The notes below the pieces were generated by a model. That model worked only from the letters and a program-made list of their open reading frames with translations. It was not told the origin of the DNA and did no database searches. Below are positions 22,481-63,235 of a stretch of DNA of 64,000 bases, in pieces; the first letter of the stretch is position 1; every line of letters starts with the position of its first letter. A program made the translations under genes and the position numbers. The stretch is from Octopus vulgaris (Eukaryota): assembly GCA_951406725.2 (NCBI GenBank), contig OX597814.1:35650001-35714000 (forward strand). The letters run 5' to 3'.

Positions 22481-22703
22481 TTAGTCAATTTAGTGTAGCA
22501 AAAAAATTCAATAGAAATTTATCGCTACCAGCGGCCTAGTGGAAAAGAGAAAATAGTCAACGACTAAATATATAAATATAACAATTTAGGAGTGACCCTA
22601 ACAGGTCATTCGTCCACCAGAAAGAGCAGCCATAACTCACACCGCCAAGTAGTAGTAATTCAGAAATTAGGTGAAAATTTAAAAACATTTACCCTAATTC
22701 ATC

Positions 22704-22801
22704 TTTTAGACGATGCATCGTTTCTGTGTCATTAATGATTAAATTAGCTTAATTAAATTAAATTAAGCTAATCTACCATAGGTTACACTTCATCAGTAAA
22801 A
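22704..22801 (-). ncRNA. Type I hammerhead ribozyme (array copy 1)
   Basis: Reverse complement of 24761-24858. Confidence 0.8.
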
Positions 22802-23177
22802 AACCTGGGAGAGACAAATATACACGAGGCGTCTGTATCGATGCCTACGGAATATCTGTCTTAAAATTTTCAAGACTGACGTATTCGCACCAAACTTATC
22901 AGCAGAAAATATAAACTGCCGATTCAATCTCAGAATTATTCAGAAAATTATCAATTAGTCAATTTAGGGTAGCAAAAAAATTCAATAGAAATTTATCGCT
23001 ACCAGCGGCCTAGTGGAAAAGAGAAAATAGTCAACGACTAAATATATAAATATAACAATTTAGGAGTGACCCTAACAGGTCATTCGTCCACCAGAAAGAG
23101 CAGCCATAACTCACACCGCCAAGTAGTAGTAATTCAGAAATTAGGTGAAAATTTAAAAACATTTACCCTAATTCATC

Positions 23178-23275
23178 TTTTAGACGATGCATCGTTTCTG
23201 TGTCATTAATGATTAAATTAGCTTAATTAAATTAAATTAAGCTAATCTACCATAGGTTACACTTCATCAGTAAAA
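23178..23275 (-). ncRNA. Type I hammerhead ribozyme (array copy 2)
   Basis: Identical to copy 1. Confidence 0.8.
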
Positions 23276-23651
23276 AACCTGGGAGAGACAAATATACACG
23301 AGGCGTCTGTATCGATGCCTACGGAATATCTGTCTTAAAATTTTCAAGACTGACGTATTCGCGCCAAACTTATCAGCAGAAAATATAAACTGCCGATTCA
23401 ATCTCAGAATTATTCAGAAAATTATCAATTAGTCAATTTAGGGTAGCAAAAAAATTCAATAGAAATTTATCGCTACCAGCGGCCTAGTGGAAAAGAGAAA
23501 ATAGTCAACGACTAAATATATAAATATAACAATTTAGGAGTGACCCTAACAGGTCATTCGTCCACCAGAAAGAGCAGCCATAACTCACACCGCCAAGTAG
23601 TAGTAATTCAGAAATTAGGTGAAAATTTAAAAACATTTACCCTAATTCATC

Positions 23652-23749
23652 TTTTAGACGATGCATCGTTTCTGTGTCATTAATGATTAAATTAGCTTAA
23701 TTAAATTAAATTAAGCTAATCTACCATAGGTTACACTTCATCAGTAAAA
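23652..23749 (-). ncRNA. Type I hammerhead ribozyme (array copy 3)
   Basis: Identical to copy 1. Confidence 0.8.
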
Positions 23750-23986
23750 AACCTGGGAGAGACAAATATACACGAGGCGTCTGTATCGATTCAATAGAAA
23801 TTTATCGCTACCAGCGGCCTAGTGGAAAAGAGAAAATAGTCAACGACTAAATATATAAATATAACAATTTAGGAGTGACCCTAACAGGTCATTCGTCCAC
23901 CAGAAAGAGCAGCCATAACTCACACCGCCAAGTAGTAGTAATTCAGAAATTAGGTGAAAATTTAAAAACATTTACCCTAATTCATC

Positions 23987-24084
23987 TTTTAGACGATGCA
24001 TCGTTTCTGTGTCATTAATGATTAAATTAGCTTAATTAAATTAAATTAAGCTAATCTACCATAGGTTACACTTCATCAGTAAAA
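23987..24084 (-). ncRNA. Type I hammerhead ribozyme (array copy 4)
   Basis: Identical to copy 1. Confidence 0.8.
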
Positions 24085-60027: not shown

Positions 60028-61054
60028 CAGGGTGCAGTGAATAAACGGTCTTCCATATTGCACAAAAATGAAAATAACAATGACATCTTGTTTCAAGAGA
60101 TACATATTCCAAAATTACATAAAAGTATCTTGAAATACTAAAGCATAAATTTATTCAATGAAATTGCCATTGGCTTCAATCATGGCCTCCAGACAACTTT
60201 GGAATCTTCTGCAAGTCTTCTGGATGAACTCCTTGTTTAATTTAGGGAATGCTGCCATAATCCTTGCCTTCAATTCATCTTTGCTGTAACATGGAGTTCT
60301 ATTGGTCTCTCGCTCAACTGTGCCCCACACATAAAATAATCAAGGGGGTTAGCACGCCGGGCAAAATGCTTACCAGTATTTCATCTGCTGGTATGTTCTC
60401 AGTTCAAATTCTGCCAAGGTTGACTTTGCCTTTCATCCTTTTGGGGTCGATAAATTAAGTACCAGTTATGCACTGGGGTCGATGTAATCGACTTAATCCC
60501 TTTGTTTGTCCTTGTTTGTCCCCTCTATGTTTAGCCCATTGTGGGCAATAAAAGAAATAAGATATTGTCTGACAGTCATAACTGGGTTCTCTTGCTTGTG
60601 TGGCATGTTGTATAGTCCTGTTGCCAGTTATAATTTCTTCCAGCAGTCACCCTCTTGACTACATCCTCCAGGCACTTAATATAGGTCTCCATGTCAAGTC
60701 TGAGGCCATGTGGGAAGATGAATGGAGGCATAACGTCACCAGCACTAGTGATCACTCTAAACAACATGATGTTGAATGGATGTTTGATTGTTATCACTCT
60801 CGGTACATGTCCTCAGATTGCACTGAGTGTCACCCAAACACTCTGAAGACAGAATTGGAGCTTCTGGCATGAATGCCAAGTAGTACAACATGTCATTTCC
60901 AAATTTTTGGCAGAGTGAATTGCATCATGGTGCTATTTTTCTCACAGATGGTGCCCAACTAACCCTACTATACTGTGTAGTTGACAAAATCAAAAACAAA
61001 CAATGTGCATGCATGATATAAAAAAAAATGGCGCCAATTTACTCATCACACTTG
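60028..61054 (-). mobile_element. Second maT/DD37D-like deletion derivative with a nested SINE E (60348-60561)
   Basis: Colinear with 12223-13102; PPFIFPHGLRL...WQQD. Confidence 0.85.
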
Positions 61055-61124
61055 CTATATACATATATTTATATGTTTAAGGATATATAAATACACACAC
61101 ATACATGCATATATATGCATATAC

Positions 61125-61333
61125 GTTAGCACGCCGGGCGAAATGCGCAGCCGTATTTCGTCTGCCGCTATGTTCTGAGTTCAAATTTCGCCGAGGTCGA
61201 CTTTGCCTTTCATCCTTTCGGGGTTGATTAAATAAGTACCAGTTATGCACTGGTTTCGATGTAATCGACTTAATTCGTTTGTGTGTCCTTGTTTGTCCCC
61301 TCTGTGTGTAGCCCCTTGTGGGTAATAAAGAAA
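61125..61333 (+). mobile_element. SINE family E
   Basis: cgttagcacgccgggcgaaatg...gccgaggtcgactttgcctttcatcc...aataaagaaa. Confidence 0.85.
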
Positions 61334-61866
61334 CACATATATATGCATACACACACACATACACACACACTCACACACACACACACACACACATACACAC
61401 ACACACATATATATACATTTAATAATTTTTAGAATAGCACAGATATTATTCAAAATGGATATATATATTTTCAATAAAACTGAATAAAATATGAAGCAAT
61501 GTAAATATGCTGCTTTATGTATCTTCAAGTAAGTATGTATTTCTCAGTACTTTGACACACCATTTATCTTATTCAAATATTAATAAATATGTAATTCAAT
61601 AGATAAATATCTATTTAAATGTCTAAAGGCCTGAGATGCGTTATTATTAAGATAATAATTTCCAGACTATTAACCTCATATTTTCAGTGTTTATTTACAA
61701 ATTGTATATCAACACTGAATATTGAATCAGTTCAACTTCCAGTCAACAGCATGTTATGAACATTGTAACACCATGGATTTGAAATAATGCCATTCTTGTT
61801 TAGCCTTGGGTGGGCTTTCTATGAGTAAACCTCTGATAGTATGCACACTTATTTCAATTTTCTAAA

Positions 61867-62090
61867 GGCGGCGAGCTGGCAGAACCATTAGCATGCCAGT
61901 TGAACAGCTTACCAGTATTTCGTCTGCCACTATGTTCTGAGTTCAAATTCCGCTGAGGTCTACTTTGCCTTTCATCTTTTTGGGGTTGATAAATTAAGTA
62001 CCAGTTGTGTACTGGGGGTAGATCTAATCGACTGGCTCCATCCCCCAAAATTTAGGCCTTGTGCCTATCACAGGAATCATTATTATTTCA
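61867..62090 (+). mobile_element. SINE family E (alternative 3' end)
   Basis: ggcggcgagctggcagaa head; related partial minus-strand copies at ~59480-59645 and ~62330-62441. Confidence 0.8.
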
Positions 62091-62676
62091 GTTTTCACAT
62101 ATCTGGTATTGACTTATCTGTATCTTTTTTTAAGATAGTTTAGTGTAGTTTGAGGTGGATTTGACTGCCATTTCTAGCAGACCATGTGACTACATATAGA
62201 TTACTAACCTGCCTTCAAGAACCTTTACTTTTTAACTAAGTCTACAGATGCATGCTGGAATAAATAACCTGACAATAATTTTAGTTCAGAGTGATTGAAA
62301 AGAAGCGTAATTCAATATGAATACTAAATAATAATCCTTTATTTTATTGGCACAAGGCCTGAAATCTTGGGGGAGGGAGCCAGTCAATTAGATCGACCCC
62401 AGTATGCAACTGGTACTTAATTTATCGACCCCCAAAAAGATGTATTTAATAAAGTATGAGGGGTGATATATGACATGTTGTATGAAAATTTATAGCATGT
62501 AGTTGAGAGAAAGGTATGGGAAGCCATAAGGAACAACAGCTACTGAGCACAGCTCCATAATGTAGACATTGTTGAGAGACAGAGAGAAGGAGAGAGAAAG
62601 AGGAGAGAGAGAAGGAGAGAGAAAAATATTCATAACCGACATACAGTAATAAGTTAAAACAAAGAGAGAACCCACT

Positions 62677-63235
62677 AATATATAGTCTAGTTTCTAAATT
62701 TTTATATGCTAGGCCACTAGTAATGGAAATTTCTAATATTTCTGATTGCCCTTTGATATTATTAATTATTGATAATTTTTTTTCTGGATAATTTTCGAAA
62801 AGCCGGCATTATTTATTTACTGCCGACAAGGAGCTGCGCTTTTGTGGTAAATTTGAAAAATTAGAATGTATAAGCACAGGGCATATAATGGATTGCCTCG
62901 TGTATATACATTTAATCTAAGGTGTACCTGCTGAAGAAGGCTTCACCTAGCAAATTATTTTATTTGCTAATAAAGTCTGAAACCATTGGTCCAGGAGTTA
63001 AATGGTAAATGTTTTTATTTTTCATTCCTTTCAAAATTTTATCCCTAACAGTAGTTTGGAATTTAACTGTTCCCTCTAGCATGAAAGGAGTCCTATGATG
63101 GATGCCTCATGTGTTTAAATGTACACTGTATTTATATGAATAATATATAGTGTATTGACTAAATTTTTACACGCTAGGCTACTAGTAATGGAAATTTCTA
63201 ATATTTTTGATTGCCCTTTGATATAAATTCTAAAT
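62677..63235 (+). mobile_element. 465-bp hammerhead element monomer with ~85-bp terminal redundancy
   Basis: gctagg-cactagtaatggaaatttctaatattt-tgattgccctttgatat at 62708 and 63173 (period 465); shares gcctcgtgtatat and attgataatttt with the 474-bp unit. Confidence 0.8.
62927..62995 (+). ncRNA. Type I hammerhead ribozyme
   Basis: cctg CTGAAGA aggctt...[tagcaaat/atttgcta]...aagtct GAAAC cattg GTC cagg; helix I cctg/cagg; helix III acca/tggt. Confidence 0.9.

Follow-up and report, generated by a model that had tools for sequence, protein, structure and literature searches.

How is a repeat that encodes nothing, and that carries its own hammerhead motif, copied to new places in a genome, and from what form of its RNA? 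The question is raised by a 64,000-nt stretch of the Octopus vulgaris genome (GCA_951406725.2, contig OX597814.1, positions 35,650,001-35,714,000, forward strand; hereafter the window), which holds several loci of non-coding units of about 470 bp, each with a type I hammerhead motif. By their sequence features these repeats belong to the animal non-LTR retrozymes (LTR, long terminal repeat), a class already known. We propose, with a probability of roughly 0.68 for the account as a whole, that they are copied by a reverse transcriptase (RT)/GIY-YIG protein of the Hydra clade of Penelope-like elements (PLEs), probably from a circular RNA monomer.

The first-pass annotation of the window described three loci with periods of 474, 461 and 465 bp, each monomer having one type I hammerhead and no real open reading frame (ORF). 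Self-match offsets confirm the periods, and a descriptor scan finds one hammerhead in each unit with the helices that had been given. The consensus units of the three families, here F1, F2 and F3, are 474, 476 and 471 bp long with 31-34% G+C; in doubled units the longest ATG ORFs are 43, 78 and 66 amino acids (aa), so that the absence of a real ORF stands, and the circular folds have z scores of -7.0, -6.5 and -4.2 against 30 shuffles. The predicted cleavage sites lie 228, ~213-220 and ~229-240 nt before the 3' end, close to the 215-245 nt proposed. The gross structure needs revision. Locus 1 is periodic but is no plain tandem: it is a head-to-head insertion (22481-24984), in which a left arm, one unit of which has a 139-bp deletion that gives a 335-bp period, meets an inverted right arm at a 2-nt overlap, the latter bringing a sixth hammerhead on the plus strand. 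The left arm ends at 22481 in what we call the long end, 228 nt past the predicted cleavage site; the right arm ends in the short end, ~130 nt past predicted cleavage and 98 nt upstream of the long end. Loci 2 and 3 have their 461- and 465-bp periods, but as one unit plus a partial copy of 45-80 bp rather than as arrays. A fourth family, F4 (52505-52985), was overlooked, and the inverted architecture with one long and one short end went unnoticed. Termini were also said to abut TA repeats, which is so for most F2 and F3 copies in the genome, found in TA-rich runs, but not for the window copies of these two families, which have few TA bases. F2 is the older family, its near-full genome matches being 74-86% identical to the window copy.

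Are the hammerheads real? The scan, run with no shuffled control, gave 12 type I descriptor matches in the window on both strands. Each motif is conserved across the copies of its family, and in F1, where helix II is 65 nt and helix III is palindromic, the palindrome occurs in two variants that differ at both paired positions, both changes being present in 17 loci and a single change in none. This conservation, together with the compensatory double change, argues that the window hammerheads are not chance matches, even though the double change may have been a single inherited event. Helix III is palindromic or nearly so in all of F1-F4; the predicted energies for its strand are -9 to -19 kcal/mol as a self-dimer and 0 to -1 as a hairpin. 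This is a design that depends on dimers, of the kind described for type I hammerheads of metazoans (PMC4209133). The paired change and the predicted dimerisation suggest a ribozyme under selection. The F2 copy in the window has U in place of core C3; most other F2 copies read CUGAUGA. Rfam at E<=1 returned 142 window matches, mostly microsatellite-driven miRNA models, and no hammerhead, so that it missed a large hammerhead population. One hammerhead-like match, at 19821, was rejected for its non-palindromic helix III and unpaired helix II. Two near-identical motifs on the minus strand (11406-11520 and 11675-11790, cores 11452 and 11721), 269 bp apart, are of a design distinct from F1-F4, with a 21-nt helix II and a 3' side that stops ~8 nt past predicted cleavage in an (ACAT)n run.

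A search of the genome (G000; 2.8 Gb in 227 contigs) shows each of F1, F2, F3 and F4 to be a dispersed family, with 1,450, 299, 3,232 and 1,869 candidates, 39-40 of each being scored. The similarity expected among the monomers holds for F1 and F3, which are identical in 292 of 464 columns (score 157.5 against a shuffle maximum of 45, and still 129.5 against 48.5 once the hammerhead is removed), but F2 does not align significantly with either directly (35 vs 31-32 +/- 4-5). It is tied to them solely through F4, which connects F2 and F3 (81 vs 51; 73.5 vs 49.5), and through F7, a 497-bp family come upon by chance, which connects F1 and F2 (z 5-18). The only consensus helix of the five families is a long-range CUAGC/GCUAG pairing, with changes on both sides, and the alignment as we read it places before both 3' ends a hairpin closing in a CCU(A/U)-type motif; F1-F4 have a conserved branched 3' domain of their own. 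A three-way MAFFT alignment of the window copies was discarded as a basis for homology, as it left the hammerheads unaligned. Further hammerhead families lie in the flanks (L305:6886-7512, L311:7696-8050, L142:2800-3230, L140:2400-2830, L317:8640-8900 and L117:780-1200); several obey the two-end rule described next, and three align with members of the F1-F4 families.

What class of enzyme moved these units? The anatomy of the insertions is the guide. Among 39 F1 loci, the best-scoring of the 1,450 candidates, 28 are inverted, with a long end on one arm and a short end on the other, and none has two ends alike; four others are inverted with one irregular end, and seven are one-way by BLAST, two of these retaining a 5-6 nt remnant of the short end. 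Arms end at unit position 470-474 (long) or ~376 (short), and the lengths of long and short arms are neither correlated nor different. The arms mostly join through 0-7 nt of overlap or a short filler, the arrays hold up to 10 pieces, and TA-rich runs bound most loci. The same rule holds for F2, where 8 of 11 inverted loci are long/short (23 loci examined), and for F3, where 5 of 11 are (25 examined), with no like pair in either. F1, F2 and F3 thus carry the Penelope insertion signature of an inverted copy plus a one-ended tail, for PLEs, according to Craig et al. 2021 (PMC8557442), typically leave a 5'-truncated copy in inverted orientation and have a tail of 30-40 bp at one end only; the F1-F4 tails, ~65-100 nt, do not match that length. 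Frangieh et al. 2024 (PMC11167929) place the tail between a pair of sites at which RT starts, and report that cutting and extension affect both DNA strands and that RNA is needed downstream of the point of initiation. The inverted long-end/short-end architecture therefore identifies the class of mobiliser, and we are confident that retrozymes of the F1-F4 type were mobilised in the Penelope manner.

What RNA served as template? In F1, units of the same arm differ by 0.24% in substitutions, units on opposite arms by 0.23%, and units from different loci by 1.81%. Sixteen alleles occur in at least two loci; they are fixed across all covering units 152 times and mosaic once. Single-locus alleles are either fixed in all units (21, of which 15 are on both arms) or mosaic (64, of which 57 are confined to one unit). 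This pattern of fixation indicates that each insertion, with both its arms, descended from one unit sequence, although the homogeneity of the arrays may partly reflect assembly polishing. The predicted cleavage site is crossed by 25 of 28 long arms and 26 of 28 short arms, at least twice in 16 and 15 of them, and positions 240-256 have no indel in 150 units. Arms copied from a linear cleaved monomer should stop at that site; only 1 break point out of 64 comes within 5 nt of it (1.5 expected), and this template was rejected. The haplotype, read-through and break-point data together suggest a circular monomer, and from these sequence patterns a circular RNA template is probable. At two loci (L148 and L160) variants alternate with a period of two units, in the same phase on both arms of L160, which suggests a dimer circle.

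The alternative that survives best is an uncleaved linear multimer transcribed from a homogeneous array, with local duplication or gene conversion maintaining the homogeneity, the hammerhead incidental, and the Penelope-type insertion retained. Clean read-through of the cleavage site would fit such a template equally well, and so would the partial period-2 patterns at L149 and L154; coding Penelope elements, moreover, form partial tandems with no known circle, and insertion of an Anolis Penelope element in vitro did not need hammerhead cleavage (Frangieh et al. 2024). One would think, however, that a multimer would yield mosaic arrays, yet shared alleles are mosaic in 1 case of 153, and two opposite arms resemble each other as closely as neighbouring units do. 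Nor are tandem arms automatic, since the arms of family G, a short derivative of a Hydra-clade element with a fixed 5' start, halt at that start with no tandem. We regard the linear multimer as unlikely. Transcript data do not enter here: parts of F1 are covered by contigs of four presumed-RNA runs, but the F1 copy number makes coverage uninformative on expression.

Which Penelope-like clade supplied the enzyme? An intact element with an 840-aa ORF (L267), reached by tracing family G upstream, has a 6,315-bp unit and copies that are 97-99% identical, carries a canonical hammerhead in its terminal repeat, and inserts in (TA)n. Its ORF has RWK-like (RIKWK) and DKT motifs, a CxCX5C linker, CxxC/CxH around E/N and no CCHH, with a C-terminal region that reads as GIY-YIG-like; by this motif reading it fits the definition of the Hydra clade (PMC8557442, section 11). 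Pfam gives no RT or GIY-YIG match to the ORF, so that such elements are likely under-annotated. Protein queries added about seven further Hydra families with open frames and young copies, making ~8 in all (loci L269-L348 and L254-L268; units up to 6.3 kb), with frames of 727 and 980 aa among them, and a third query brought back the same families; named close relatives come from Argonauta. The hammerhead motifs in the terminal repeats of the Hydra elements are of type I, their helix II measuring 10-86 nt (51-86 nt in 5 of 7 examined); the tails of these elements are ~72-175 nt, and the long/short rule is obeyed. The tails of F1-F4 fit this range and not the 30-35 nt of the Neptune-like families. 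Family G (L203-L232) is a ~290-bp non-coding, non-tandem derivative of the 840-aa family's terminal repeat, and 20 of its 22 inverted loci are long/short.

Two insertions that combine both kinds of sequence connect the superfamily with Hydra elements. At G000:C31, ~9.9862-9.9912 Mb (L389), an F4-type arm with a long end and a near-full Hydra arm with a short end are joined head to head without TA between them. At G000:C13, ~27.728 Mb (L304), an F4-type 3' end stands in place of the end of a Hydra 3' untranslated region (UTR); a coding Hydra subfamily with such an end was considered and rejected, since 10 out of 10 additional sister copies end in a 3' UTR of their own. The link would extend to F1-F3 through their homology to the F4 lineage. 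In sequence, only a 12-nt word at the long end is common to F1, F3 and the 840-aa Hydra family (1 of 500 shuffles). Taken together, the sequence evidence makes Hydra-clade elements the mobiliser with good probability. In the window itself, a decayed Hydra-clade element lies in the right (TA)n run of the F1 insertion; it has an extended-helix-II hammerhead motif (core 26877) and is 68-79% identical to a young family; this is an insertion in its own right, from the class proposed as mobiliser. Two older pieces, at 2007-2197 and 19445-19655 (both plus), stem from the 840-aa family or from its short derivative: one is a 3' part of the terminal repeat that reaches the long end within (TA)n, the other a fragment of coding sequence.

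Could another (TA)n-targeting clade have done the same? The GIY-YIG search yielded an intact 781-aa Neptune-like family (L111-L126), its copies mostly 97-100% identical, which has two end sites within (TA)n and, of 18 loci, one that is inverted and long/short; (TA)n is also the target of Naiads, a group reported from Octopus (Craig et al. 2021, PMC8557442). The tail of the 781-aa family is 35 nt, however, and those of its relatives ~30 nt, its hammerhead is a short variant with a deviating core, and both mixed insertions found involve Hydra elements, so that mobilisation by a Neptune-like enzyme or by a Naiad, for which no dedicated search was made, is improbable. The 781-aa RT/GIY-YIG frame is preceded by a 479-aa frame with no Pfam match.

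It might also be asked whether the units are merely truncated terminal repeats of some coding Penelope-like family. Family G is just such a short derivative of a coding Hydra element, and the coding-family searches scored 63-150 of up to 35,591 candidates each. Yet the F1 arrays, of up to 10 pieces and mostly bounded by TA, have no coding sequence between units, and RT and GIY-YIG ORFs are absent from F1-F4 units. Across 110 locus records (107 distinct loci) a Neptune-type profile matched two fragments, BLAST with 10 PLE units found only neighbouring pieces, which were not each inspected, and nowhere does an F1-F4 unit serve as the terminal repeat of a PLE ORF. Comparison with Neptune-like families A-D, with a Poseidon-like family judged by eye and with seven Hydra terminal repeats (highest z 3.1) revealed no parent; a similarity of a neighbouring family to Hy960 (z 4-6) vanished on longer sequence. 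Truncation is thus very improbable, and the first-pass reading of the units as independent, non-autonomous, non-coding hammerhead retroelements is borne out, with a hammerhead in each unit and dispersed copies that have no RT/GIY-YIG ORF. One may also consider a DNA-level satellite, its arrays having grown through unequal crossover or through rolling-circle copies made on extrachromosomal circles of DNA. Such a circle would likewise give single-haplotype arrays, and local amplification has been proposed for tandems (Li et al. 2026, bioRxiv 10.64898/2026.07.22.740005), but a satellite leaves the fixed long and short ends, the (TA)n targeting, the inverted arms and the retrozyme-Hydra insertion unexplained and is largely excluded by the end rule.

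How might an insertion arise under the Hydra-clade account? An array would first be transcribed. By analogy with known retrozymes, hammerheads of neighbouring units would pair through the palindromic helix III and release unit-length RNA, which a host ligase would close into a circle. The Hydra protein would then nick both strands of a (TA)n run and prime one cDNA from the long site (+228 from cleavage in F1) and another from the short site (+130), both on the same RNA; the two ends are observed, and their role as initiation sites is suggested by the work of Frangieh et al. 2024. Each cDNA would travel round the circle, presumably in rolling-circle fashion, for up to ~7 units, until the two met through 0-7 nt of microhomology or a short filler to leave a head-to-head array. 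For this last step the arrays and junctions are what we observe. A broader proposal, which we hold with evenly balanced confidence, is that these repeats are a self-cleaving circular-RNA superfamily, with a conserved branched 3' domain of its own and no identifiable parent among terminal repeats, that parasitises Hydra enzymes, its insertions recording rolling-circle reverse transcription in both directions, primed at two sites from the two nicked strands of a (TA)n target.

Several points weigh against the proposed account. The 39-locus F1 sample is biased to long, young arrays, and at L149 and L154 the alternation is limited to the first 3-4 units, which suits later local duplication. In the F1 hammerhead the base of helix II is an A.A mismatch and helix I, of A-U pairs, is weak; for the window copies of F1, F2 and F4 folding predicts a minimum-energy structure other than the whole hammerhead. 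Eight of nine tested Xenopus retrozyme dimers did not cleave (Li et al. 2026), and the hammerhead of the Anolis element, as noted, was dispensable for insertion. Only two mixed insertions were seen among ~100 Hydra loci, and both involve an F4 subfamily (78-82% identical to F4 over ~150 nt) rather than F1-F3. Among the coding families examined, no terminal repeat aligns with F1-F4. A two-end rule in (TA)n is seen in the intact Neptune-like element as well, and the 22 inverted loci of family G include one apparently long/long and one short/short.

Other features of the window lie near these loci, whose coordinates are collected in the table. A decayed element at 55100-56900 (minus), which we take to be Penelope/Poseidon-like, retains traces of an RT, along with a hammerhead-like motif near 55230 and, near 56840-56905, a terminal piece in inverted orientation; the genome has 2,593 candidates. 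A direct duplication of ~230 bp (62445-62675 and 63519-63724) flanks the F3 locus, and the 5' break of F3 falls directly after its first copy. A 149-bp tandem of two copies, 96% identical, lies at 42983-43278.

Table. Retrozyme loci, hammerhead motifs and associated features of the window (positions within the 64,000-nt stretch)
Feature	Position	Strand	Detail	Basis
(TA)n target left of F1 insertion	22278..22481	.		sequence inspection
F1 left arm	22481..24566	-	~4.4 head-to-tail 474-bp units	self-match and insertion-end analysis
F1 hammerhead motif	22701..22804	-	core start 22796; predicted cleavage after GUC at 22709	descriptor scan
F1 hammerhead, identical copy	23175-23278	-	core 23270	descriptor scan
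F1 hammerhead, identical copy	23649-23752	-	core 23744	descriptor scan
F1 hammerhead, identical copy	23984-24087	-	core 24079	descriptor scan
F1 hammerhead, identical copy	24458-24561	-	core 24553	descriptor scan
F1 right arm	24565..24984	+	inverted relative to left arm	descriptor scan and insertion-end analysis
F1 right-arm hammerhead motif	24758..24861	+	core 24766; predicted cleavage after 24853	
(TA)n target right of F1 insertion	24981..25150	.		sequence inspection
Decayed 5'-truncated Hydra-clade PLE	25147..27019	+	in right (TA)n of F1	
F2 copy	40204..40714	+	45-bp partial copy and one 461-bp unit; terminus is long end	self-match
F2 hammerhead motif	40440..40500	+	core 40445; predicted cleavage after AUA at 40495	
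F4 inverted insertion	52505..52985	.	long end ~52505 (minus arm), short end ~52985 (plus arm)	
F4 hammerhead core	52800			descriptor scan
F3 copy	62676..63224	+	80-bp partial copy and one 465-bp unit; terminus is long end	
F3 hammerhead motif	62927..62995	+	core 62931; 41-nt helix II; predicted cleavage after GUC at 62991	

What is already in the literature, and what is added here? Cervera and de la Pena 2020 (PMC7229834) defined non-LTR retrozymes, showed circles in coral, mussel and axolotl, and proposed PLE-driven copying of circles into tandem cDNA; Li, Clavereau and Pollet 2026 (bioRxiv 10.64898/2026.07.22.740005) reported units of 51-972 bp, found a homologous resident terminal repeat for 24 of the 57 families of Xenopus, had no mollusc among their 35 genomes and, as far as the preprint text goes, left the mechanism open. 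The enzyme that moves animal retrozymes and the circle as template, proposed in 2020, are accordingly still open in the preprint, as is the origin of the inverted, one-tailed Penelope insertions, undefined in Craig et al. 2021. Our search, whose coverage was of journals outside subscription, found no publication on cephalopod retrozymes, on Hydra elements as their mobiliser or on the haplotype evidence, and the main text of an Octopus vulgaris repeat annotation has no occurrence of hammerhead, retrozyme or Hydra; consensus sequences of F1-F4 may already sit in files S1/S2 of Craig et al., the tables of Li et al. or the Octopus library. The new content is the Penelope two-end rule, the candidate Hydra-clade mobiliser and the single-haplotype, two-armed arrays. 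If the account is true, these insertions show how inverted, one-tailed Penelope insertions form. This one genome contains a retrozyme family that is very young, Hydra elements that are young and intact, mixed insertions, and two candidate start sites that have been mapped, and so offers a named enzyme, RNA and target for an in vitro test.

How do these repeats compare with known systems? With animal non-LTR retrozymes they share non-coding, low-GC (31-34% here) tandem units with one type I hammerhead each, copies dispersed apart from a coding element, no LTR, primer binding site or polypurine tract seen, and a proposed Penelope-like mobilisation through circular RNA; they belong to the class by all those defining features that lend themselves to testing, the exception being homology with the terminal repeat of a resident element. 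Two features that the first-pass annotation thought unusual are not: ~470 bp falls within the 51-972 bp reported for the class in the 2026 preprint, and an extended helix II is also found in the coding Hydra-clade elements of this genome. The inverted, one-sided-tail anatomy and single-haplotype arrays are not described in the available text of the two retrozyme papers (PMC7229834; bioRxiv 10.64898/2026.07.22.740005), and F1-F4 match no terminal repeat found, unlike 24 of the 57 Xenopus families.

The predicted dimer-favouring helix III of F1-F4 follows the design of metazoan type I hammerheads (PMC4209133). Hydra-clade PLEs (Craig et al. 2021) likewise have (TA)n targeting, a canonical type I core, two 3' ends and inverted insertions, and those of this genome share long tails and extended helix II with F1-F4, whereas F1-F4 encode nothing and align with none of the Hydra terminal repeats found. 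The Hydra elements here differ from the published description (PMC8557442) in tails of ~72-175 nt versus the 30-40 nt typical for PLEs and, in the families measured, in units of 2.9-6.3 kb versus <3 kb. Poseidon of Anolis carolinensis (PMC11167929) also has two internal RT start sites that define the tail and an AT-rich target, but its template is a linear coding RNA and its tail short, whereas here the template is non-coding and likely circular and the tail 65-100 nt. Plant LTR retrozymes carry a type III hammerhead in their LTRs, in contrast to the type I topology and head-to-tail units of F1-F4. Among hammerhead satellites the monomer of pDo500, from Dolichopoda crickets, is ~500 bp. The newt, schistosome and pDo500 repeats (PMC2837043) resemble those described here in being tandem, with a conserved hammerhead and compensatory changes; they are described as satellite DNA, in an abstract whose subject does not extend to insertion ends.

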